Shown here piece by piece: positions 6,118 through 52,741 of a DNA stretch of 64,000 nt. A model generated the notes under the pieces. That model was not told the DNA's origin and did no database searches. It was given only the letters and a program-made list of their open reading frames with translations. The DNA is from Bacteroidota bacterium. Its GTDB lineage: Bacteria > Bacteroidota > Ignavibacteria > UBA10030 > SZUA-254. The position numbers and the translations under genes are program-made. Location: positions 8,904 through 72,903 of the forward strand of contig JBEKTW010000012.1 of NCBI GenBank assembly GCA_049515655.1, given 5' to 3'. Positions within the stretch are counted from its first letter, which is position 1. Every line of letters begins with the position of its first letter.

Positions 6118-8238
6118 ATGAAGCGTAGATATCGATTTCTCGTTATGGTGTTGGTCATGGCGACTGTCACGGCCGTGGAGTCACAGGCGCAATGGGTTCA
6201 GTCCGACTGCCCTTACGGTGGGGCTTTCGACAACCTCGCCGTGAATGAAAAGTATGTTCTCGCAAACGGGTTCTTTTATTCGAGCGATATGGGGTCAACG
6301 TGGCAGGCTACCGGGTTTGGAAGATGGTCAAGATGCCTGGCCGTCGCCGATTCAAACGTGTTCGCGGGCGACTTGTGGGGGTCAGTCTACGTCTCGACCG
6401 ACTACGGGTTGACCTGGGCGACCGCCGGAACGGGGAAAAGTGGGTTACCGGCCAGTGTGATCTATTCGCTTGTCGCGATGCCCGGGTGGGCCGGGGGAAA
6501 TGTGATCGCCGGTACCGACAGCGGGGCGTACCGGTCGACGGATAGGGGCGCATCATGGAGCGCCGTTAATAACGGCATCGCCGCCTATGATCAGGTCGCC
6601 TCTCTGATGCTCGACGCAACGTACATCTTTGCCGGTACGCAGACCGGGGTGTACCTTTCCACGGACTTTGGAACGACATGGAAACTCGTCACCTACGCGG
6701 GCAGCAAAGTCTGCGCGTTCGCATCCGTCGCGTCCTATGTCTACGCCGGCACTGTGAGCAGCGGCGTCCTACGCTCGACGAATTATGGAAAAGACTGGCA
6801 GCCGGTCAACGGAGGACTTACAAGCAACAGTGTTCTCTGCATTGCGATCGGCCCCGCCATAACAGGTGGCTATAACGTGTACGCCGGTACGCCTGACGGC
6901 GTATTCGTCTCGGGAACCACGGGGTCCTCGTGGCAGGCTCTGGGCCTTTCGGGGTATACTATTCAATCGCTCGTCACCCTCGGTGTTGAGCCCCTCGCGG
7001 CCACGAAGTTTGGCATATTTAGGTCCACTGACCTGGGGTTGACGTGGCAACCTTCAAGCAACGGCATACCTGCACGTGTGTGGGCTCTCGGCTCTTATGG
7101 TTACAAGACGCTCTCTCTCAGTTCGGCAGGTTTTTGCGTGTCCATGGATGGGGGGCAAAGTTGGTCGCAATCGAATACGGGGCTGCCCGACAATAGCTTC
7201 AGCTCTCTCGCCATTAATTCATCGATGATCTTCGTCGGAAGCTCTGTCAACGGAGTCTACCGGGCGAGCGTCAGTAGGATGGTATGGGAGGCGGATACGA
7301 TCGGCATGGGGCCTCAGGCGCAGGTGGCGTCAATTGCGGCATCCGACGCCAGGATCTTTGCCGGGCTCAACTGGTGGGGCGGACTTTACGCGTCGTGCGA
7401 TAATGGAGGCCGGTGGAGCGCTGTGCAGTCAAACTCCCTCTGGAATAACCACCGCTCCGTCTATTCGATCGTATTGAGGGACTCGCTCGTCGTCGCCAAT
7501 ACCGACGGCGGGGTGTACGTTTCTTCCGACAACGGCGTAACATGGTTGGTGCGGGCGCTTGAGAAATACAGGGTGAATGCACTGGCTTTCGGTGGGCAGG
7601 TACTGTATGCCGGAACATCCAGCGCGGGGGTATTCACGTCCACCGACAACGGCGTGAGCTGGTCCGGCGGCGGAACGGCAAGTGGTCTGACGAACACCCA
7701 TGTGAATTGCTTCGCGACGAAAGGAACCAATGTTTTTGCGGGAACCAATCAGGGGATTTTCCTTTCGACCGATAGCGGGACGTCCTGGTCGTCAGTTACA
7801 GTAACGAACCCGGCTCTTGACTCCGGCGGCGTTTATTGCCTCGCAATTGTTAATTCCCAGCTTCTTGCGGTCGTGTCCGCCGGCGGGGTGTGGCGCAGGC
7901 CACTCTCGCAGATGATAACAGATGTTCCGCCCAGCCGGCGCAACATTCCCCTCACATACAATCTCGACCAGAATTATCCGAACCCGTTCAATCCCACGAC
8001 AACAGTGTCATTTGTTATTGGTCATTCGTCATTGGTGACACTCACGGTGTACGACATACTGGGACGGCAAGTCGCGACGCTGGTGAACGAGGTAAAGCCA
8101 CCGGGTGAGTATACGGTTCGGTGGAATGCAGACGGAGTGCCGAGCGGTGTTTACTTCTACCGTCTGACGGCCCGCCCAACAGACGGCGGGCAGGCCGGAA
8201 GGTTCAGTGATACAAAAAAACTATTGTTGATTAATTAG
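6118..8238 (+). CDS. BNR/Asp-box repeat protein with T9SS C-terminal sorting domain
   Basis: 706 aa with a signal peptide. At least 10 Asp-box repeats (STDYGLTW, STDRGASW, STDFGTTW, SSDNGVTW ...). C-terminus is NLDQNYPNPFNPTTTVSF...GVYFYRLTARP...KKLLLIN. Confidence 0.8.
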   Translation: MKRRYRFLVMVLVMATVTAVESQAQWVQSDCPYGGAFDNLAVNEKYVLANGFFYSSDMGSTWQATGFGRWSRCLAVADSNVFAGDLWGSVYVSTDYGLTWATAGTGKSGLPASVIYSLVAMPGWAGGNVIAGTDSGAYRSTDRGASWSAVNNGIAAYDQVASLMLDATYIFAGTQTGVYLSTDFGTTWKLVTYAGSKVCAFASVASYVYAGTVSSGVLRSTNYGKDWQPVNGGLTSNSVLCIAIGPAITGGYNVYAGTPDGVFVSGTTGSSWQALGLSGYTIQSLVTLGVEPLAATKFGIFRSTDLGLTWQPSSNGIPARVWALGSYGYKTLSLSSAGFCVSMDGGQSWSQSNTGLPDNSFSSLAINSSMIFVGSSVNGVYRASVSRMVWEADTIGMGPQAQVASIAASDARIFAGLNWWGGLYASCDNGGRWSAVQSNSLWNNHRSVYSIVLRDSLVVANTDGGVYVSSDNGVTWLVRALEKYRVNALAFGGQVLYAGTSSAGVFTSTDNGVSWSGGGTASGLTNTHVNCFATKGTNVFAGTNQGIFLSTDSGTSWSSVTVTNPALDSGGVYCLAIVNSQLLAVVSAGGVWRRPLSQMITDVPPSRRNIPLTYNLDQNYPNPFNPTTTVSFVIGHSSLVTLTVYDILGRQVATLVNEVKPPGEYTVRWNADGVPSGVYFYRLTARPTDGGQAGRFSDTKKLLLIN

Positions 8239-23034: not shown

Positions 23035-23120
23035 CGCCCCTACCACCTACGACCTATCACCTGTAACCTACTACCCACACCCTATCACCCACAACCTACC
23101 TCCTGCCACCACTTCGCCGG
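23035..23120. repeat. strand-asymmetric C/A/T-rich degenerate tandem repeat (CCTAYCACC-like units)
   Basis: The stretch cctaccacctacgacctatcacctgtaacctactacccacaccctatcacccacaacctacctcctgccacc has almost no G on the top strand, so the complement is G-run rich. Confidence 0.4.
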
Positions 23121-23178
23121 GAACATTCCCTCCTTTCGAAGAGTAAAAGGAGTAAGCAAGTGACATTATGCAAAGGAT

Positions 23179-23325
23179 GTTCGATGTCCAAAATCCGAAG
23201 CACAAAATTCGAAATCATAAACAAAACCTAAGCTCGAAACCCTAAATTCAAAAAAGGCGGAATTGGGTATTTGGACATTCGGATTTAGGATTTGTTTAGA
23301 GTTTAGTTATTCGGATTTCGGATTT
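23179..23325. repeat. A-tract-phased repeat element (modules X and Y, AAATCCGAA / TTCGGATTT motifs), copy A
   Basis: Module X at 23179-23250 (gttcgatgtccaaaatccgaagcacaaaattcgaaatc...). Inverted module Y at 23277-23325 (attcggatttaggatttgtttagag...). X is homologous to the reverse complement of 31253-31327. Confidence 0.5.
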
Positions 23326-23428
23326 ACTTAAGTTTCACGTATTCGTATGTGGAATTTTTCACTAAAAACTATACCTCTGCGTAAGATCACTAAATGACTT
23401 TCATTCACTCTATCGAAAGGGTCCCGCG

Positions 23429-35604: not shown

Positions 35605-35633
35605 AGATCTCTCTTGACTCCCTCAAGAATTAT

Positions 35634-35675
35634 CAATTGCTAACAACCAATTGACAATTGTCGATTAGCAGTTGG
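35634..35675. promoter_or_regulatory. dyad-symmetric element between the deaminase and ThrC-like genes
   Basis: caattgctaa...ttagcagttg is an inverted repeat (9 of 10 bases match) enclosing two CAATTG palindromes. Confidence 0.25.
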
Positions 35676-35710
35676 CCATTCACCATTACCTTGAGATGAT
35701 CAAGCTCGTC

Positions 35711-37985: not shown

Positions 37986-38034
37986 GATTATTGTCCTTTT
38001 TTTGCCTTCGATAACCAGGTAACTACTCAACCAA

Positions 38035-38098
38035 TCAACGATCCAACTACCCAACTATTCAACTACTCAACGATCCAACCACTCAACTATTCAACTAT
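38035..38098. repeat. 32-bp tandem direct repeat x2 (tcaacgatccaactacccaactattcaactac)
   Basis: Two adjacent units differ at 3 positions. Same CAACTA-type 8-mer family as the arrays around the 39.1-39.8 kb cassette. Confidence 0.6.
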
Positions 38099-38106
38099 CG
38101 CACTAT

Positions 38107-39087
38107 TTAACCCATCGTCAATGCCATCGCCGCTTTCTGGGCGTGCATCCGATTTTCAGCTTCATCGTACACAACCGAGTTGGGTCCATCCATTACGCCG
38201 TCGGTCACTTCGATGTTGCGGTCGGCGGGAAGCGGATGCATGTAAATTGCATCGGGTTTTGCCAGCTTTAGCCGTCGCTCGTCCATAATCCACGACGAGT
38301 ATTTGCCGATGATTTTTGCGCCTTCTTTTTCGTCCGCCGTGTGGACCATCGCGCCCCACGACTTAGCGTAGACGACGTCGGCGCCCTTCATCGCGGCATC
38401 CATATCGTTAACCACCTCGAAGCCTGCGCCAAATTTCTTCGCTTGCTCACGCGCTTGATCCATGATCTCCGGCATCAGTTTAAATTCCGGAGGATGCGCA
38501 AGGACGACATCCATTCCAAAGCGCGGCATTTGCAGGATGAGTGATTGCGGTACCGACATCGGTTTCTGGTACGAGGAGGCGTATGCCCATGACACGACGA
38601 TCTTCTTGCGGCGCAGATCGCGTCCCTTCTTTTCGACAATCGTCATCAGGTCGGCGAGTATCTGGTACGGGTGATAGACGTCGCACTGCATATTCAGGAC
38701 CGGCACCCGCGAGTGTTTTGCAACTTCATTGATGTATTTGTTGCCGACGCCCCAGTCCACATGGCGGATGGCGATGCCGTCGAAATACCGGCCAAAAATT
38801 TCTCCGATTTCCTTCGGCGTGTCGCCGTGCGCAATCTGCGTCGACCGCGACTCGATGAATGCCGCGTGCCCGCCGAGTTGTGCCATCCCTGCTTCAAAGG
38901 AACCGCGCGTACGCGTGCTGGAGAAAAAGAATAGCATGGCGAGGACTTTATCGCGCAGCACTGCCTGCGATTCATTCAACGCGCGTTTGCGTTTTAAATC
39001 AAAAGCAACGTCGAGGACAGTTTCAACTTCTTCTTTGCTGAAATCGAGATCGCCGATTAAATCACGGCCATGTAGGTATGTTTGCAT
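38107..39087 (-). CDS. transcarbamylase (ATCase/OTCase superfamily), substrate unknown (YgeW-context paralog 1)
   Basis: STRTR carbamoyl-phosphate motif (FFFSSTRTRGSFEAG), HPYQ and HPLP motifs. 326 aa. Adjacent to carbamate kinase. Confidence 0.8.
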   Translation of the reverse strand: MQTYLHGRDLIGDLDFSKEEVETVLDVAFDLKRKRALNESQAVLRDKVLAMLFFFSSTRTRGSFEAGMAQLGGHAAFIESRSTQIAHGDTPKEIGEIFGRYFDGIAIRHVDWGVGNKYINEVAKHSRVPVLNMQCDVYHPYQILADLMTIVEKKGRDLRRKKIVVSWAYASSYQKPMSVPQSLILQMPRFGMDVVLAHPPEFKLMPEIMDQAREQAKKFGAGFEVVNDMDAAMKGADVVYAKSWGAMVHTADEKEGAKIIGKYSSWIMDERRLKLAKPDAIYMHPLPADRNIEVTDGVMDGPNSVVYDEAENRMHAQKAAMALTMG

Positions 39088-39102
39088 GGGTTCTTCTTTC
39101 GT

Positions 39103-39174
39103 TTGATAGTTCGATAGTTAAATAGTTCAATAGTTAGATAGTTGGATAGTTCAATAGTTCGATAGTTGGATCGT
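39103..39174. repeat. 8-bp-period tandem array (NNATAGTT) of about 9-11 units
   Basis: tgatagtt cgatagtt aaatagtt caatagtt agatagtt ggatagtt caatagtt cgatagtt ... It continues degenerately into the 3' end of the adjacent four-helix-bundle gene. Confidence 0.7.
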
Positions 39175-39597
39175 TCAGTCGTTTGGTGGTTTCTTCGTTG
39201 GATCGTCGGAGCGTTGTTTGTTCGATGCTGAGCCGTGTTCGCGAAGATACGCGATGAATGCATTCATGAGTTGTTTCGCTTCAGTTGCCAAATTGTAAAC
39301 GGCATCCATTTGTTCTTGCGTGACGTACTTGCGATCAAGCGCGAGGTTCAATTCAGACTGTACTTCGCTGGCTGAGCGGCGCGCAATCTTTAGAAACCGG
39401 ATGAATTCCGGATTATAGCCAGAATCGAAGCCCTCTGCTATATTGTGCATCACTGATCCTGCCGCCGCCTGAATCTGATCCCGTAGCCTAAAGTCTTTCG
39501 CAAATCGTGTTCCTTCAGTGAGATCATAGATCGCGTTTGCCAATTTCCGCGCCTTATGCCAACACTCTAGATCTTCAAAGTGTCTGATTGTCCCCAT
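39175..39597 (-). CDS. four-helix-bundle protein (23S rRNA intervening-sequence protein family, TIGR02436/PF05635-like), copy 1
   Basis: MGTIRHFEDLECWHKARKLANAIYDL...RDQIQAAAGSVMHNIAEG...FLKIARRSASEVQSELNLA matches the family consensus. The gene is AT-richer than its flanks. The track start at 39612 is a TTG. Confidence 0.8.
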   Translation of the reverse strand: MGTIRHFEDLECWHKARKLANAIYDLTEGTRFAKDFRLRDQIQAAAGSVMHNIAEGFDSGYNPEFIRFLKIARRSASEVQSELNLALDRKYVTQEQMDAVYNLATEAKQLMNAFIAYLREHGSASNKQRSDDPTKKPPND

Positions 39598-39770
39598 AAA
39601 AATCCTCCCCAACTGTCGAACAATTGAACGACCAAACGATCCAACGATTCAACAACCGAACAATCCAACTACCCAACTACTTAACTACGCAACCACACAA
39701 CTGTACGTTATTCAACGCCCGAACGATCTAACGACCCAACTATTTAACTACTCAACTACGTAACTGTAAG
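39598..39770. repeat. 8-bp-period array (NAACNANN / CAACTAYN), about 20 units, inverted relative to the 39103-39174 array
   Basis: gaacgacc aaacgatc caacgatt caacaacc ... caactacc caactact taactacg. The reverse complement of 39103-39174 aligns with it (shared ccaaacga, gaacgatccaac, caactat). Confidence 0.65.
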
Positions 39771-40751
39771 TTATTCAACAGCACCCAAAACGAGCGAGAT
39801 CAACCCCATTTTCAGGACGACGCCGTAGAATGCTTCCTGCCAGTAGCGCGCCCAGCGGGTAATGTCGACGTCCGGAGGAATCTCATCCATGCGTGGAAGC
39901 GAGTGGAGTAATATCATATCACTCTTTGCCTTGCTCATCAATAGCTCGCGCGTGATCTTGAAATTCGCCGGCGTGAGCGGTCGATCCTTCGTGGCTTCCT
40001 GTCGCGACTGCGAATAATCGGCCTGGATCACCGGCTCGACCAGAATCACATCGGCGTTCGCGATCGCCTGCTCGACGTGCTCCGCTTCGCTAAAGTTAAG
40101 TCCGTACTTCTTGAAATCCGCCTTGTATTCTTCCGGCATTCGCATGTCGGGCGAGTTTGGGAAAAGCGCATTCGGGGCCGGGCCGACGAAAGTGATGGGA
40201 CAATCGAATTGTGTAAGCGCATATCCGAGCGAGTGCATCGTGCGCATTCGCATGTCCCCAACGGCAAGCCAGCGCAGACCGTCAATGCGTCCGCGTTCGC
40301 GGAGGACCGTATAGAGGTCGGTGAGAATCTGGGTCGGGTGTTCGCCCCAGCCGTCACCGCCGTTGATGATCGGTACAGACGACCATTTCGCGGCCTCGTG
40401 CGGCGCCCCTTTCTGAAAATGGCGCATTGCAATCACGTCACCGTAGAACTCGAGCATCTTCACGGTGTCTTTGATGCTCTCCTGATAGTAATCGCCGGCG
40501 CGCGTCATTTTGGCGTCGGCAAAACCAGTAACGTGTCCGCCGAGGCGGTGCATGGCGGCTTCGTGGGAAAGACGCGTGCGCGTGCTGGGCTGATAGAACG
40601 CAGTCACGAGCGTCTTACCCTTGAGCATATCACTGTTCTGGCGATTGCGGGCGATCGGCTCCAGACGTTCCGCAATTTCAAACACGCGGAGGAACTCGCT
40701 TCGTTCAAATTCTTTAAGCGACAGAATGTCGCGACCGATGAAACTACGCAT
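39771..40751 (-). CDS. transcarbamylase (ATCase/OTCase superfamily), paralog 2
   Basis: STRTR motif (FYQPSTRTRLSHEAA), HPTQ, and an HSLP variant of the HPLP/HCLP motif. 326 aa. Confidence 0.8.
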   Translation of the reverse strand: MRSFIGRDILSLKEFERSEFLRVFEIAERLEPIARNRQNSDMLKGKTLVTAFYQPSTRTRLSHEAAMHRLGGHVTGFADAKMTRAGDYYQESIKDTVKMLEFYGDVIAMRHFQKGAPHEAAKWSSVPIINGGDGWGEHPTQILTDLYTVLRERGRIDGLRWLAVGDMRMRTMHSLGYALTQFDCPITFVGPAPNALFPNSPDMRMPEEYKADFKKYGLNFSEAEHVEQAIANADVILVEPVIQADYSQSRQEATKDRPLTPANFKITRELLMSKAKSDMILLHSLPRMDEIPPDVDITRWARYWQEAFYGVVLKMGLISLVLGAVE

Positions 40752-40831
40752 TGTGAAATTCTCCTTTTGTTTTGATGATTACCATTTTCAAACACTCTAC
40801 TCAGGCTCTTGGCTGTTAGCCCTTGGATTAC

Positions 40832-41383: not shown

Positions 41384-41453
41384 AAAAACGTTCCATGATT
41401 GACGATGGATGATTGATGTCGGCCTTTAGCCCTTGGCTTCTGGCCTTTGGCAT
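41384..41453. repeat. low-complexity repeat (gatgattga units plus ggcctttagcccttggcttctggcctttggc)
   Basis: The reverse complement of 41811-41847 is about 85% identical to 41421-41451. The two flank four-helix-bundle gene copy 2 as inverted repeats. Confidence 0.6.
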
Positions 41454-41810
41454 TTAACTCTTAGAGATTTTCGATATCAGGGCGTTCGTCATCTTTTGCT
41501 CTGACGTCAGTAATCCTGCAACTTTTTCCACTTTCTCGGCTGGGACAAGACAGAGCTCTTGAAGAATCTGTATTTGAGTCTCAAGTTCAAACGCAGAGCC
41601 CATTGATAGCTCCAAGAATCTTTTGAATTCAATCTCACTATTTCTGCTACAGCCTTCTGCGATATTGGACGGAATTGAAACTGCGGCCCTGCACATTTGA
41701 GCCTTCAATCCGTACTGTTCTTCTTTCGGAAGTAATTTCGCAAGATCATACACTTGCTTCACAATCTCAATTCCATCCCTCCAAATAGTCAATTTTCTGA
41801 AGTCTCTCAT
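41454..41810 (-). CDS. four-helix-bundle protein (23S rRNA IVS protein family), copy 2
   Basis: MRDFRKLTIWRDGIEIVKQVYDLAKLLPKEEQYGLKAQMCRAAVSIPSNIAEGCSRNS..FKRFLELSMGSAFELETQIQIL is a textbook family match. About 43% GC. Confidence 0.85.
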   Translation of the reverse strand: MRDFRKLTIWRDGIEIVKQVYDLAKLLPKEEQYGLKAQMCRAAVSIPSNIAEGCSRNSEIEFKRFLELSMGSAFELETQIQILQELCLVPAEKVEKVAGLLTSEQKMTNALISKISKS

Positions 41811-41847
41811 CTTGCCTCCCAAAAGCCAAGAGCCAATGGCTAATAGC
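41811..41847. repeat. inverted partner of repeat 41421-41451 (ccaaaagccaagagccaatggctaatagc)
   Basis: Contains the 15-mer ccaatggctaatagc, whose exact reverse complement gctattagccattgg occurs in the 45438-45543 repeat. Confidence 0.55.
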
Positions 41848-43192
41848 TTTCTATTGTCACACTCTTCCCCACACTCTTCACCACTCCGTCAATACTCGCA
41901 TGCACTCTCGCCCCGAGTTTTCCTTCGGGAATTTCTCCGATGCACTGGCCTTTCACGACCATGTCGCCGGGGCGGACGATCGCGAGCGCCGGAAATCCCA
42001 TGTGCTGGGAGAGCGGAATCTCGACCTTCGACACCGTGATGTGCTTTTTGATGAACTCCGAGGGATGGTCGTAGTCGGTCACACCGAGACGTTTCACGAG
42101 TTGCCTCAGCGGCGTTCGCCTCCCCTCATACATGGGATGAGGTTGAACGTCCATATTCCCCGACCATTTGATTCCCTGTTCCTTCAAATCGTGTTTTGCC
42201 TTGTCGCAAGCTTCTTTGGGAAACAGGCTTTCAGGACACGCGTACAACGTGCAGAGCCCGCACGAGCAGCAGAGCTCTGCGTACTGATTCCAGATATTCT
42301 CTCCGGTCGTTGTAAACGAGAGACTCCGCATCACTTTGTGCGGCTGGATGTCGTAGCCGAGGAGGTAGCGCGGACACAATTCCGTGCAGTACGTGCACTG
42401 GTCACATGCTGATTTCCCTATCCGGTGCATCGATTTTTCCGGTTGACGCTTCCGCTGCACAAGAGTATGCTCAATCGGAAGAACCACCAAACCCGCCACC
42501 GTCTTTGTGATGGGAAGGTCAAGATTAAACTCCAATCTCCCCATCATGACACCGCCGACGAAGACCGCGAATCCCTTCGAGCCGTCGTAGGAGAACCCGC
42601 CCGCCGCTTCAATCGCTTTCGCGAAACTCATACCGATCGGTGCGAGAAAGGAACCCGGGTTCCTGACGGCGCCTGCGACGGTGAGGAATTTTTCCGTGAC
42701 CGGGTGACCTTCCGCCGCACGGACGATATTGTAGAGAGTCTCGACATTGTTGACCACGACGCCGACGTCGAGCGGAATTCCTTTCGGAGGGATCAGGCGC
42801 TTCGTCGCCTCATACACGAGGATGTATTCATCGCCGGATGGATAGAAATCTCCCAACAGATGGAACTTGGGATTATGCTTGGGATTATTGGCATGATTGG
42901 GATTATTGGAACTTAAGGCCGTGGAGAGTGCGTCGATAGCGAGCTTGTTCTTCTGCTTGATTCCAATGATCCCGGAACCCGCTCCCGTCGATTCCATGAG
43001 GAGTTGCAATCCCCGGACGACTTCCCCCGGATAATGGAGCATCAGTTCATAGTCCTTATGAATCAACGGCTCGCATTCGGCTCCGTTGGCGATGACGCAC
43101 CCGACCTTCGCGGAGGCCTTGACGTGTGCCGGGAATCCGGCTCCGCCCGCGCCGACAACCCCGGCGTTGCGTATTTTCTCTGAAATGCTCAC
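41840..43192 (-). CDS. RnfC/NuoF-like Fe-S flavoprotein, PduS-like
   Basis: GAGGAGFP NADH/FMN-site motif near the N-terminus. Two 4Fe-4S ferredoxin motifs (CDQCTYCTELCP; CCSCGLCTLYACP). 450 aa, GTG start. Lies immediately upstream of the PduT-like gene, as pduS-pduT do in pdu operons. Confidence 0.75.
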   Translation of the reverse strand: MSISEKIRNAGVVGAGGAGFPAHVKASAKVGCVIANGAECEPLIHKDYELMLHYPGEVVRGLQLLMESTGAGSGIIGIKQKNKLAIDALSTALSSNNPNHANNPKHNPKFHLLGDFYPSGDEYILVYEATKRLIPPKGIPLDVGVVVNNVETLYNIVRAAEGHPVTEKFLTVAGAVRNPGSFLAPIGMSFAKAIEAAGGFSYDGSKGFAVFVGGVMMGRLEFNLDLPITKTVAGLVVLPIEHTLVQRKRQPEKSMHRIGKSACDQCTYCTELCPRYLLGYDIQPHKVMRSLSFTTTGENIWNQYAELCCSCGLCTLYACPESLFPKEACDKAKHDLKEQGIKWSGNMDVQPHPMYEGRRTPLRQLVKRLGVTDYDHPSEFIKKHITVSKVEIPLSQHMGFPALAIVRPGDMVVKGQCIGEIPEGKLGARVHASIDGVVKSVGKSVTIESY

Positions 43193-44715: not shown

Positions 44716-44969
44716 TTTGATGTCCTCATTTACTATGGTTAATTGATATCAAGCTCTAAGGGGTTCTTCGTTCTTTGTCATTGGTTCTTAGTCATTGGTC
44801 ATTGCTCTCAGCTTTTGGCTCTTAGCTATTGGCTACCAGCTTCTGAATTCTGTCTTCTGTCTACTTGGTTCCTTGTTCTTTGTTATTGGTTCTTCGTTCT
44901 TTGTCATTCGTCACTGGTCATTAGTGCGTTGTTCCTGCTTCCGTCATCCATCTTCCATCATCCATCGTG
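44716..44969. repeat. modular low-complexity repeat (ttctttgtcattggtt..., ttttggctcttagctattggc, cagcttctgaattctgtcttctg)
   Basis: Same orientation and same modules as 45438-45543, making direct repeats that flank the CoA-binding gene. Confidence 0.6.
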
Positions 44970-45437: not shown

Positions 45438-45543
45438 TGGTCATTGGTTCTTGCTTTTGGCTTTTGGCTTTTGGCTATTAGCCATTGGCCTTGGGCTGCC
45501 GGCTTCTGAATTCTGTATTCTGACTACTGGGCTTCTAATTGAC
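45438..45543. repeat. modular low-complexity repeat, direct partner of 44716-44969
   Basis: catgttctttgtcattggtcattggttcttgcttttggcttttggcttttggctattagccattggcc...ccggcttctgaattctgtattctg. Confidence 0.6.
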
Positions 45544-51225: not shown

Positions 51226-51687
51226 TCACTTTGCCGCATCCTTGATCGCTTCGACAATCTGAACGTAACCGGTGCACCGGCAGAGATTGCCCGAGATAGC
51301 GATTCGAATGTCCTCTTCGGAAGGATGGCCGTTCTTATCCAGCAATGCTTTCGCACTCATTAACATTCCCGGTGTACAGAAGCCGCAATGTGCTGCATCG
51401 TGGTCCATGAAAGATTCTTGAAGCGGGTCGAGTCTACCGTCCGAGATCAAACCCTCCACCGTCAGGATTTTTTTGCCGTCAATCTGAGGCGCGAGCACAA
51501 GACACGAATTCACGGCTGCTCCGTCGAGCAGAACCGTGCAGGCGCCGCATTCCCCCACTTCGCAACCGCATTTCGTTCCGGTAAATCCGAGTTCATCCCG
51601 CAGAATCTCAAGCAGCGTTCTGTCGGGGAAAATCGAGAGCACATATTCCCGACCGTTGATGGTTGTATGGATTGGGACTTGGGGCAT
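51226..51687 (-). CDS. molybdenum hydroxylase [2Fe-2S] small subunit (XdhC/CoxS-like)
   Basis: Plant-type ferredoxin motif CGCEVGECGACTV. Second cluster motif CGFCTPGMLMS...NLCRCTGY. Confidence 0.9.
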   Translation of the reverse strand: MPQVPIHTTINGREYVLSIFPDRTLLEILRDELGFTGTKCGCEVGECGACTVLLDGAAVNSCLVLAPQIDGKKILTVEGLISDGRLDPLQESFMDHDAAHCGFCTPGMLMSAKALLDKNGHPSEEDIRIAISGNLCRCTGYVQIVEAIKDAAK

Positions 51688-51887
51688 CAACTTGAAGAAT
51701 TGGAATGATTGGAATGATTCCAGAGATTATTCCTTCCCTTTTCAAATTTGCGAAGGTATTTCATATTGTACTCAAATCCTTCGGCGATATTGCTGGAAAT
51801 CGACATCGCCGTGTATATGTCGACCGCAACCTGCATCGCTTTCCGCCAAACTTCTAAGTCTTCAATCTTTCCAATCTTCCTAATCAC
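51687..51887 (-). pseudogene. decayed four-helix-bundle (IVS-protein family) gene remnant, copy 3, exactly filling the FAD-subunit / 2Fe-2S gap
   Basis: 66 aa: KIEDLEVWRKAMQVAVDIYT...SISSNIAEGFEY retains the family N-terminus and the SNIAEG motif but has lost the middle and the C-terminal helices. Flanked by inverted repeats gaagaattggaatgattggaatga (51693-51716) and tcaatctttccaatcttcc (51856-51880). Confidence 0.45.
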
Positions 51888-52741
51888 AATCTACACCCCT
51901 CCAGCGCCCGCCTGACCAAAACACCAATGACCGGTTCTTTGTATTCGGTTGACCAGCGTCTGCCGGTTTCCGAAATCATCAACTCCGAGACCTTCTGCCC
52001 CGCGGCTGCGAACAGTTTTTCCGAAGGTTTTTCCCCTATCAGCATTTTTTCCGCCTCATCGGCTCTTCTCCACTTCGAAAATGCAGCTCCGGGAGCAATA
52101 CGGGCGTCGACGATTTTCCCCTGTTCATTCTGTTCAATCACGGCGGCCACGCTCAATCGCGCGATGGAGAGCGCGTTCCGACGACCGAGCTTAATGAAGG
52201 CACTCCGGGCTTTTTCAGAAAGTTTCTGGAATCGGATTTCCGTCAGGAGTTCGTCTGGCCGGGCGTTTGTTACATACGGCCTCACAATCAATTCATCAAT
52301 TCCCATTTGCCGGCTCCCGCGCTTCGATTTCAGCGTGACACGGGCGCCAAGGGCAATAAGCGGGGGTACGGTATCGGCACAGACGGCGGCGTTCATGATG
52401 TTGCCGCCGATCGTGCCGCGATTTCTGATCTGCGGGGAACCGATGAGGGAAGCGGCAGCTGCAAGTAATGGCGCGTACTGATGGAGGATGGAGGATTGGA
52501 GCAACAGCGTGTGTGTCGCGAGGGGTTTGATGCGGACAGACCCGTTCTCCAGATTGATCGTGCCAAACTCATCAAGGAATGAGATATCAATGACCGCTTT
52601 CGGCGGCTTGCCATCGGGCCGACGGAGCTCCAGGAGCACGTCCGTGCCGCCGGCAAGGATACGCGCATCAGGACCATATTCAGCGAGCACTGAACACGTT
52701 TCGTCGATTGAACCGGTCCGTATGTAATCGAATGCCCTCAT
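51884..52741 (-). CDS. molybdenum hydroxylase FAD-binding subunit (XdhB/CoxM/YgfM-like)
   Basis: ILAGGTDVLLELR FAD-binding signature and a CO-dehydrogenase-flavoprotein-like fold. ATGA overlap with the Mo subunit. Confidence 0.85.
   Translation of the reverse strand: MRAFDYIRTGSIDETCSVLAEYGPDARILAGGTDVLLELRRPDGKPPKAVIDISFLDEFGTINLENGSVRIKPLATHTLLLQSSILHQYAPLLAAAASLIGSPQIRNRGTIGGNIMNAAVCADTVPPLIALGARVTLKSKRGSRQMGIDELIVRPYVTNARPDELLTEIRFQKLSEKARSAFIKLGRRNALSIARLSVAAVIEQNEQGKIVDARIAPGAAFSKWRRADEAEKMLIGEKPSEKLFAAAGQKVSELMISETGRRWSTEYKEPVIGVLVRRALEGCRL

Follow-up and report, generated by a model that had tools for sequence, protein, structure and literature searches.

A PF05635 gene enclosed by inverted arrays of 8-nt repeats in a purine-catabolism operon: a candidate IVS-type hairpin cassette

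The IVP1 cassette and its predicted stem

The gene designated as IVP1 (39175-39597, minus strand, 140 aa) lies between an ATCase-like gene (39771-40751, minus strand) and an OTC-like gene (38107-39087, minus strand), and is flanked on both sides by arrays of 8-nt units that are inverted relative to each other. It probably represents, although with considerable room for doubt, an IVS-type hairpin cassette in an operon: a promoter-less gene of the PF05635 family with its own Shine-Dalgarno sequence, situated in the loop of a stem made by the inverted arrays. The host of the cassette is a long minus-strand purine-catabolism/microcompartment operon in the window, i.e., the whole 64-kb stretch of DNA analysed. 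No rRNA was found in the window by Rfam, and the cassette sits between two protein-coding genes, not inside a 23S or 16S gene. Rfam gave no match of any kind across the window at gathering thresholds, nor in the cassette region at E<=1, and promoter-like and terminator-like consensus sites showed no excess in the operon, cassette included. The G+C content is 48.5% in the IVP1 ORF and 44.9% in the whole cassette, compared with 54.0% and 56.5% in the flanking genes. The cassette is thus AT-richer than its operon, as first described, but the initial annotation had put the surroundings at 58%, and the contrast is smaller than that.

IVP1 belongs to the four-helix-bundle ('23S rRNA IVS protein') family, with matches to PF05635 (E 3.5e-32, 111.2 bits against a curated cutoff of 33.8) and TIGR02436 (E 2.8e-30, 104.7 bits against 24). 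This confirms the initial annotation, which had placed a gene of the family between two transcarbamylase genes. In phmmer searches, IVP1 matched 2gsc_A at E 9e-11 and 2rld_A at E 1e-6, and a profile built from the PF05635 proteins collected here reached 2gsc at 8e-30. The conserved motif of the family is GxxRxxxSxxxNxxE (PMC3936711). Its S, N, and E residues are kept in IVP1 (AAAGSVMHNIAEG), and the motif Arg is replaced by Q/A (DQIQAAAGS), compared with R in all orthologues (DQIRDAAGS or DQIRRAAGS). The Shine-Dalgarno sequence GGGGAGGA was read at 39603-39610 (minus strand), in the loop directly after the 5' arm, and a GGAG-type Shine-Dalgarno sequence is present between arm and start codon in most IVP1 orthologues.

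[quoted passage not shown] TRF delimits this short array at 39101-39176 (39177 in another listing), with period 8, 9.5 copies, and 80% matches, and the count of 11 units given originally is therefore too high. The 5' arm (39598-39773, minus) has G/T-rich 8-nt units of the form NNRTNGTT, begins at the ATCase stop codon TAA, and contains two copies of a 63-nt block. This long array (39598-39770) is more degenerate, with 8-bp sub-arrays at 39627-39702 and 39709-39765 (73-80% matches in TRF) and a 63-bp higher-order duplication at 39647-39780 (2.1 copies, 83%), the repeated block of which takes in the last codons and the stop codon of the ATCase gene. Together the arms span the entire intercistronic space, from the upstream stop codon to a point shortly ahead of the downstream ribosome-binding site. 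The 3' arm and a TRF array at 39195-39216 overlap about the last 14 codons of IVP1, and in the orthologue at locus L007 a tail of 45 aa is encoded by the repeat array; the repeat does run into the 3' end of the gene and encode its tail, as had been proposed.

The two arrays had been described as reverse complements, and pairing bears this out: positions 39116-39209 and 39609-39702 align over 94 nt with 70% Watson-Crick pairs, or 82% when G·U pairs are included. The RNA duplex of the two arms has a computed energy of -109.4 kcal/mol with 96 pairs (-58.7 +/- 5.7 for shuffled partners), and its longest unbroken helix is 23 bp. When the whole cassette was folded as RNA, z was -5.8, and MFE and centroid structures alike contained the arm-arm stem. 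A stem bordered by complementary sequences with the PF05635 ORF in its loop, the architecture suggested at the outset, is therefore predicted, as an imperfect 96-bp duplex in which mismatches break the stem every 6-8 bp.

Inside the operon, read-through transcription would include the cassette in the polycistronic mRNA, and the arms would pair co-transcriptionally, closing the inserted cistron off from its neighbours. Since the G-rich arm would always be synthesised first, the C-rich arm would never be single-stranded. By analogy with rRNA IVSs, the duplex, with helices of up to 23 bp, is a plausible substrate of RNase III, cleavage by which would free the IVP mRNA and leave the two flanking fragments with ends protected by the base of the stem. 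The regular mismatches may limit such cleavage. At the DNA level, the arms would grow and be matched to each other by slippage, by block duplication as in the 63-bp case, and probably by template switching. The probable target of the PF05635 protein itself is nucleic acid, and may be the repeats.

Other cassettes and arrays in the window

A second intact PF05635 cassette with 7-nt-unit arms is located at 41421-41847 (minus strand; profile matches and TRF). Its gene, IVP2, is 41454-41810 and codes for 118 aa, or for 122 aa if started from TTG at 41822. The product scores 113 bits with PF05635 and 108 bits with TIGR02436, above the cutoffs of both families, and is about 29% identical to IVP1. 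The 5' arm at 41820-47 (GCTATTA GCCATTG GCTCTTG GCTTTTG) overlaps the stop codon of a PduS/RnfC-like gene, the 3' arm is 41421-53, and the arms agree at 22 of 28 positions as read by eye. Between the genes of the FAD and Fe-S subunits of xanthine dehydrogenase, there is a third PF05635 cassette (51687-51890, minus) that has decayed by internal deletion and retains inverted 8-9-nt arrays at 51699-51719 and 51863-51885. In the IVP1 operon, an 'empty' hairpin is present between the PALP and deaminase genes (35628-35687, minus), with 34-nt arms of units of about 7 nt and 74% complementarity.

At 38013-38111 (minus; TRF 38021-38099), the OTC-like gene and the carbamate-kinase gene are separated by a solo array, G/T-rich and of the unit family seen in the IVP1 arms. 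This array can pair with the short arm of IVP1 over 99 nt with 77% Watson-Crick pairs and -96.7 kcal/mol, i.e., equally well, and in the pairing model such a duplex with the 3' arm would enclose the OTC-like gene. Further partnerless or direct-repeat arrays of the cassette unit families were found in the operon at 44716-44969 and 45438-45543, flanking a CoA-binding gene, and at 40752-40831. The pure stem model leaves solo and direct arrays in the operon unexplained. Head-to-tail intergenic arrays of 7-9-nt units, as in STRR-like SSRs, were delimited by TRF at 38021-38099, 39101-39177, 39627-39780, and 41421-41455. Two further arrays of the window, 8007-8036 and 23039-23345, have no PF05635 gene nearby.

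These arrays could alternatively be periodic binding sites for a ring-shaped PF05635 oligomer, a reading modelled on TRAP, which binds 11 spaced triplets. Every subunit would recognise a single 7-8-nt unit in RNA or DNA that is single-stranded, and the oligomer would control hairpin formation or downstream translation, in cis at cassette arrays and in trans at solo and empty ones. This appears improbable to us, but several observations point in its direction. At other places in the operon, solo and direct arrays of the cassette unit families immediately precede start codons, and the two PF05635 paralogues of one genome differ in unit sequence and in period (8 nt and 7 nt). The entries of the solved homologues 2GSC and 2RLD each contain five chains, XCC0516 is described as a toroidal homopentamer (PMC4990558), and PF05635 is reported to be homologous by sequence and structure (4DWL compared with 2GSC) to Avd of DGRs (PMC10053308). 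Period follows protein clade: in 53 of 55 cases the nearest neighbour has an identical period, where about 60% would be expected by chance. Shared descent is a confounder here, since one operon family supplies many of the cases. Longer arrays vary mainly at two positions, as core plus spacer, in 7 of 34 arrays at p<0.05; the pattern is weak overall, with a top-2 share of 0.57 against 0.54 in the null. Binding sites alone also leave the consistent inversion and complementarity of the flanks unexplained.

Orthologous loci, inheritance, and spread

An IVP1 orthologue was found at the ATC|OTC junction of eleven Chloroflexota operons (L007-10, 12, 35, 41, 43, 50, 51, 55). Arms of 8-nt units are present in all 10 intact orthologous cassettes with both flanks readable; relatives carrying the gene with no repeats, which would have spoken against the cassette, were not encountered among them. 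The sequence of the repeat unit varies by genome while the paired arms remain complementary: the mean arm score is 23.2 within loci and 10.9 across loci, and the score is above all 200 shuffles in 16 of 17 loci. Tandem arms were recognised in 32 of 54 junction hairpins of the relatives, 24 of them with period 8 and seven with period 7. Pseudogenes and empty hairpins with the same repeat units occur at the same or neighbouring junctions. A search for empty sites had been proposed, and they exist in the closest relatives: the cassette is gone in L003 and decaying in L004. The operon is intact in both, from which it follows that the cassette is dispensable for operon function, a point against the hairpin reading.

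The packaging is not limited to this operon family. At 60 (79%) of 76 unrelated metagenomic PF05635 loci, the gene has inverted arrays with a period of 7 or 8 bp, in most cases 7. Taken together with the orthologues, these loci show that the IVS-like architecture extends beyond the window. Among 160 fetched loci, no rRNA-embedded PF05635 copy was detected with long conserved 23S motifs. That the arms are generic microsatellites, their inverted relation being a coincidence in intergenic regions rich in short tandem repeats, is very improbable and was rejected. Many 7-9-bp arrays are indeed scattered in the window, some with no PF05635 gene nearby. However, the window has 13 occurrences of ATAGTTNNATAGTT at <=1 mismatch where 0.11 are expected, every one of them in three arrays of one operon; the energy of the arm duplex is about 9 sd past shuffled partners; the arms co-vary by genome; and the arrangement recurs in all readable orthologues and in most of the unrelated homologues.

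The IVP1 orthologues have omega values of 0.08-0.19, which indicate that the PF05635 protein is under purifying selection, and IVP identity correlates with that of ATCase (rho 0.40, p 0.0025). The latter means that the IVP1 copy was inherited together with the operon. An identical IVP1 protein was found on just one other contig, and the two contigs are 100% identical over 13.7 kb. In comparisons of the window with L004 and L003, no target-site duplication or clean excision was seen, and loss proceeded by decay. The features of a transposable element or MITE are present in part: the cassette has inverted termini, but no transposase, no target-site duplication against these two loci, and intact copies that are about 29% identical. 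The initial suggestion of mobile units has indirect support, in that paralogues sit at different junctions and presence varies among relatives, but the copy studied here was co-inherited with its operon and is lost by decay.

The same observations bear on a DNA-level selfish element, which seems rather unlikely to us. In such an element, the arrays would be terminal inverted repeats or a palindrome, mobile or spreading by slippage and intramolecular template switching; the PF05635 protein would be cargo or agent, empty hairpins would be MITE-like, and the RNA hairpin would be incidental. It agrees with the mismatches of the stems. In a test that scored all mismatches alike, sense-strand G·U and A·C transition mismatches numbered 84:78 (p 0.69) in the operon hairpin set and 100:75 (p 0.07) in the metagenome set, and with no significant excess of G·U these counts show no clear RNA-specific signature of selection on the stem, which speaks against the hairpin reading as well. 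It also agrees with the homogenisation of units among junctions of one genome (0.51 against 0.26, permutation p 0.0004), with the enlargement of one arm by a 63-bp tandem duplication that copied the ATCase stop codon, and with the paralogous cassettes at differing junctions and their presence or absence in close relatives. IVSs were proposed earlier as remnants of transposition or mobile elements, with an ORF serving mobility (PMC4990558). On the other hand, the cassette is old here and vertically co-inherited, and shows decay instead of clean excision or visible target-site duplications. The PF05635 gene is in sense orientation in 46 of 50 cases with both neighbours co-oriented, and this bias, the conserved Shine-Dalgarno sequence, and purifying selection point to expression from the host transcript. 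A four-helix bundle of 120-140 aa is unlike any known transposase or recombinase. Finally, of 53 hairpins, 50 have more G than C in the 5' arm (p 6e-12); transcription or translation accounts more readily than DNA transposition for this 50:3 polarity, with the G-rich arm first.

Comparison with known systems

The closest counterparts of the IVP1 cassette are the ORF-bearing IVSs in 23S rRNA of Coxiella and Leptospira, in which a PF05635 ORF lies in a stem loop with complementary borders and RNase III cuts inside the stem (PMC4990558). In the cassette, too, complementary sequences border a PF05635-family ORF and are predicted to form an extended stem with the ORF in its loop, and the cassette is likewise AT-richer than its host and sporadic among relatives (PMC4990558). 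It differs in its host, a polycistronic mRNA as opposed to helix 9, 25, or 45 of 23S rRNA, and in its arms, which are 7-8-nt tandem-repeat arrays. Its ORF has a strong Shine-Dalgarno sequence and is under purifying selection, unlike S23p of Coxiella, which apparently is not made in vivo. RNase III cuts are known for the IVS stems, whereas the cassette is known from sequence and a predicted fold.

Intercistronic RNase III or stabiliser hairpins, as in the phage T7 early region and in REP/BIME, are long and imperfect, fill the intercistronic space, do not terminate transcription, and can separate or differentially stabilise cistrons. The cassette resembles them as a long imperfect hairpin filling the intercistronic space of a polycistronic mRNA, but they have neither a gene in the loop nor tandem repeats, and the cassette has no Rfam match. 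An integron cassette consists of a promoter-less ORF in sense orientation, expressed by read-through, and of attC, an imperfect inverted repeat that folds as a hairpin. The IVP1 cassette shares the promoter-less sense ORF and an imperfect inverted repeat able to fold, but here the repeat encloses the ORF, while in integrons it follows the ORF, and no integrase, attI, or attC core sites are present. Membership in a DGR was considered on account of Avd and rejected, as no reverse transcriptase domain was found in the scanned operon genes (Pfam and precomputed annotation). A scan for inverted repeats across the window showed only the arrays, a template/variable repeat pair was not seen either, and bAvd was not reached by the sequence profile built from the PF05635 proteins.

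Heptamer arrays offer the other comparison. The GGGAATC arrays of Xanthomonas include 70-75 convergent (inverted) pairs that could form stem-loops (PMC4692102), and the TAACTGA arrays of Beggiatoaceae are located ahead of start codons and have stops in each of the three frames (PMC4679880). Like these and the cyanobacterial STRR, all with units of 7 nt, the cassette arrays are intergenic and near the end of the upstream ORF. Unlike them, they are tied to PF05635, have period 8 in the IVP1 operon lineage, and co-vary as hairpin arms; STRR, GGGAATC, and TAACTGA repeats have been treated as G-quadruplex or regulatory SSRs, with PF05635/S23 proteins unmentioned (0 occurrences) in those papers. No paper linking the PF05635 family to flanking tandem-repeat arms was found in the limited literature consulted, which is no proof of novelty.

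As a tentative proposal, more doubtful than the hairpin cassette itself, PF05635 genes and the inverted or solo 7-8-nt arrays could form one widespread and unrecognised class of intercistronic elements, in which a ring-shaped protein recognises the units of its own and of empty hairpins, as RNA or DNA, and thereby governs how hairpins form, are processed, or spread. Few uncharacterised small proteins of bacteria are as widespread as those of PF05635, which are known from rRNA IVSs and cas operons, from large paralogous families, and from DGRs as Avd. Heptameric tandem repeats, for their part, are over-represented in many genomes, a feature that has lacked an explanation since about 1990. If the hairpin packaging and its gene-less versions hold up, the IVS protein family and the heptamer repeats are one puzzle. 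A single element class, if real, would account for the puzzling IVS protein family as well as for the over-representation of heptamers such as STRR and GGGAATC, and the rRNA IVSs would be merely the insertion site noticed first. Such cassettes would divide operons into segments bounded by hairpins, which is relevant to product stoichiometry, the microcompartment operon included, and the repeat arrays and low-complexity protein tails to which they give rise mislead CRISPR finders and gene callers. Outside the loci described above, a PF05635 gene on a Nostoc plasmid is flanked by (GGGAACA)n and (TGTTCCC)n.

The IVP1 cassette and its predicted stem

The gene IVP1 (39175-39597, minus strand) codes for a 140-aa protein of the PF05635 family (23S rRNA intervening sequence, IVS, proteins), with E values of 3.5e-32 for PF05635 and 2.8e-30 for TIGR02436, both well over the curated cutoffs. 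The solved structures 2GSC and 2RLD, with five chains per entry, match it as well. On the sense strand, the stop codon of the upstream ATCase-like gene (39771-40751, minus strand) is followed by the G/T-rich 5' arm U1, the SD GGGGAGGA, the IVP1 ORF, the A/C-rich 3' arm D1, about 20 nt, the OTC-like gene (38107-39087, minus strand), U2, which is a solo G/T-rich 8-nt array at 38013-38111, and carbamate kinase. The initial annotation had described an AT-rich cassette with inverted 8-bp arrays between the two transcarbamylase genes. This was confirmed, except that the array at 39101-39176 has 9.5 copies (80% matches, TRF) instead of eleven, and the neighbouring genes have G+C contents of 54.0% and 56.5% instead of about 58%, against 48.5% for the ORF and 44.9% for the cassette. 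The repeat also runs into the 3' end of the gene, as had been noted, with D1 overlapping the last ~14 codons. Further, more degenerate 8-bp arrays were recognized by TRF within 39627-39765. Allowing no more than one mismatch, the unit ATAGTTNNATAGTT was counted 13 times where 0.11 would be expected, and it is confined to three arrays. A 63-bp higher-order tandem duplication (39647-39780, 83% identical, TRF) lies in the 5' arm, and its second copy repeats the last ATCase codons and the TAA stop (GTTGAATAAC...), so the long arm grew by DNA duplication; the block shows a recent DNA-level extension of this arm.

The arms had been called reverse complements of each other, and U1 and D1 are indeed complementary over 94 nt (66 Watson-Crick and 11 G·U pairs). 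Their predicted RNA duplex has 96 pairs and -109.4 kcal/mol, the longest helix being 23 bp; shuffled partners gave -58.7 +/- 5.7. In the whole-cassette fold (z = -5.8), the proposed arm-arm stem is present in both the MFE and the centroid structures, with the ORF in the loop. D1 is also complementary to U2 over 99 nt (77%; 76 Watson-Crick and 6 G·U pairs; predicted duplex -96.7 kcal/mol), and in these predictions U2 pairs with D1 as well as U1 does. Two mutually exclusive long-range pairings would thus be available, one enclosing IVP1 and the other the OTC-like gene.

Cassettes in relatives and in metagenomes

The window, taken from a JGI metagenome contig, was compared with 80 loci that each code for a close homologue of the ATCase. 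Terriglobia MAGs come nearest, with 94% and 92% identity; the rest are mostly Chloroflexota, with 77-87%. An IVP1 orthologue (55-75% identity) lies between the ATCase-like and OTC-like genes in eleven Chloroflexota loci, in every case on the operon strand; it is frameshifted in L008 and cut by the contig end in L041. All ten intact orthologues with both flanks available lie between two 8-nt arrays. The upstream one starts at the stop codon (TAG/TAA), and the downstream one stops at the SD of the next gene. The repeat units vary by genome, with the arms still complementary (TCGTTGNN / CAACGANN, ATAGTGCG / CGCACTAT, GTAGTCNN / NNGACTAC). The mean arm score was 23.2 within a locus and 10.9 across loci, and it was above all 200 shuffles in 16 of 17 loci. 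At the junction of the OTC-like and carbamate kinase genes, seven loci carry a different PF05635 paralogue (30-36% identical), again with matched arms around the gene. Because this is the junction where U2 is found, U2 may be a leftover 5' arm. Many loci without a gene at these junctions have "empty" hairpins of like arrays there. Arms are tandem in 32 of the 54 junction hairpins (24 with period 8, 7 with period 7), and the two junctions of a given genome have units in common (0.51 vs 0.26, permutation p 0.0004). Genes other than PF05635 at the ATCase-OTC junction (L049:6950-7920, L061, and L016) have one complete tandem-repeat hairpin on each side and are not inside a single hairpin, so the loop position is perhaps specific to PF05635 genes.

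Omega among IVP1 orthologues is 0.08-0.19 (dN 0.057 and dS 0.69 in the least saturated pair), and IVP1 identity correlates with ATCase identity (rho 0.40, p 0.0025). Judged from these values, the gene is functional and has for the most part moved together with the operon. A good SD is present in the loop of most orthologues. IVP1 of the window lacks the conserved Arg of GxxRxxxSxxxNxxE (codons ~45-52), with DQIQAAAGS (Q/A) in place of the DQIR(D/R)AAGS of all eleven orthologues, which may be a sign of relaxed constraint, this being a lineage whose relatives are losing the gene. In the closest relatives, the comparison for presence or absence that had been suggested revealed a decaying cassette in L004, where the 5' array, SD, and N-terminal half of the gene remain, and nothing of it in L003; neither has a clean excision footprint. 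The best account is that the IVP1 cassette has long been part of this operon lineage and, since the nearest relatives are losing it, is dispensable. Its mobility, proposed in the initial annotation, is something we infer.

A profile of these PF05635 proteins found 80 metagenomic loci (marine, soil, freshwater, and gut), giving 76 genes with usable flanks. Inverted-complementary flanks (score at least 15) were present in 60 of them, nearly all as tandem arrays and mostly of period 7. A cultured case is plasmid pC052_D of Nostoc sp. C052, where a gene annotated as "four helix bundle protein" has (GGGAACA)n upstream and (TGTTCCC)n downstream. Where both neighbours are on one strand, the PF05635 gene shares their orientation in 46 of 50 cases. 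Array period follows the protein clade (the nearest neighbour shares the period in 53 of 55 cases, against ~60% by chance), much of this being shared descent. The observation is real and significant, and the structural reading as an IVS-like hairpin cassette within an operon is supported and generalises beyond the window.

Maintenance of the arms and similarity to known elements

Transition mismatches between arms were counted as G·U or A·C in the sense transcript, the alignment scoring treating every mismatch alike. The counts were 84 vs 78 (p 0.69) in the operon set and 100 vs 75 (p 0.07) in the metagenome set, so an RNA signature is weak at most. DNA processes (for example slippage, block duplication, and template switching from arm to arm) may be largely what keeps the arms complementary, and a purely DNA-level selfish palindrome is one main rival explanation. 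In 50 of 53 hairpins (p 6e-12), the arm that is rich in G and poor in C precedes the other, a polarity that reads alike on both strands and by which the C-rich arm would never be exposed unpaired during transcription. Stop codons in all three frames occur in 17 of 54 first arms vs 3 of 54 second arms. Transcription and translation would explain polarity, strand symmetry, and first-arm stops more easily than DNA transposition. Added to the sense co-orientation, conserved SD, and exactly filled intercistronic space, these three favour a transcript-level logic, without being proof of it. The PF05635 cassette would be expressed by read-through and insulated by its hairpin, with arms evolving via DNA-level repeat dynamics. 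The separation of cistrons by RNase III that had been suggested is likewise inferred, by analogy with rRNA IVSs.

In Coxiella and Leptospira, the 23S rRNA IVSs that bear an ORF are AT-rich and bordered by complementary sequences forming a stem cut by RNase III; the S23p (PF05635) ORF occupies the loop, and a mobile-element origin has long been suspected (PMC4990558). The IVP1 cassette has the same architecture, but it is placed in mRNA, away from the defining location, and has tandem-repeat arms and a constrained ORF that is evidently expressed. PF05635 genes were also found between cas genes (PMC3936711), and the family is reported as homologous to Avd, the accessory protein of DGRs (PMC10053308). 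Heptamer arrays are known as TAACTGA repeats in Beggiatoaceae (PMC4679880), GGGAATC in Xanthomonas, with 70-75 pairs convergent (PMC4692102), and STRR in cyanobacteria; the Beggiatoaceae and Xanthomonas papers do not mention PF05635 or S23 proteins. No Rfam family matches the cassette. A literature search of limited coverage, hence no proof of novelty, found nothing joining PF05635 genes to flanking tandem-repeat arms.

Host operon and other arrays in the window

The minus strand carries all genes from ~35170 to beyond 56500, with short spacers, and a consensus scan revealed no excess of promoter-like or terminator-like sites across the operon. Coded at 35170-56509 are xanthine-dehydrogenase subunits, amidohydrolases, an M20 peptidase, a DPD-like oxidoreductase, a CoA-binding protein, two PLP enzymes, a PduS/RnfC-like protein, a tandem BMC-domain shell protein, the ATCase-like and OTC-like carbamoyltransferases, carbamate kinase, and a deaminase. 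With xanthine dehydrogenase, amidohydrolases, both carbamoyltransferases, the kinase, and PLP enzymes beside shell and PduS-like proteins, it looks like a purine-fermentation microcompartment operon. Among MAGs of Terriglobia, "Bacteroidota", KSB1, and many Chloroflexota, the ATCase-like protein keeps 77-94% identity, which suggests horizontal transfer of the whole operon, cassettes included.

A second intact PF05635 cassette (41421-41847; gene IVP2, 41454-41810) separates the PduS/RnfC-like gene from the BMC-T gene. Its upstream 7-nt arm (GCTATTA GCCATTG GCTCTTG GCTTTTG) overlaps the PduS-like stop codon, and the complement is downstream. These arms belong to a 7-nt GGCYTTT family, different in unit and period from the 8-nt IVP1 cassette, which is only 2 kb away within this operon. 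Within the PduS/RnfC-like gene, 9/18-bp tandem repeats (42866-42909) encode a low-complexity insert (NNPNHANNPKHNPK) between domains. A third PF05635 copy, an internally deleted pseudogene (51687-51890) between the xanthine-dehydrogenase FAD-binding and 2Fe-2S subunit genes, retains inverted 8-9-nt arrays (GGAAGATT... / ...AATCATTCC). Between the PLP-enzyme and deaminase genes is a gene-less hairpin (35628-35687) with 34-nt arms of ~7-nt units, 74% complementary.

On either side of the 155-aa CoA_binding_2 gene are long heptamer arrays (44716-44969 and 45438-45543) in direct, not inverted, orientation. Their units GTCATTG and GCTTTTG and common block cagcttctgaattctg are of the IVP2 family and A/C-rich on the sense strand. 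They are without a nearby partner, the sole G/T-rich complement in the operon being the short 5' arm of IVP2, ~3 kb downstream. A/C-rich heptamer arrays of this family also precede the ATCase gene. Solo and direct arrays would be accounted for by the other main rival, a TRAP-like model in which an oligomeric PF05635 protein would bind the repeat units; this model, the read-through cassette, and the DNA palindrome are not mutually exclusive.

Outside the operon, an 887-bp gap between genes, with no ORF identified, contains at 23039-23345 a 7-nt array rich in A and C (CCTACCA x10) as well as a hairpin built of AAATCCGAA / TTCGGATTT-type repeats with the rare reversed polarity, C-rich arm first on the plus strand. 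Far from the operon, GTCATTC/GTCATTG heptamers, with the unit seen beside the CoA-binding gene, are located at 8007-8036, near the 3' end of a large plus-strand ORF (6118-8238).
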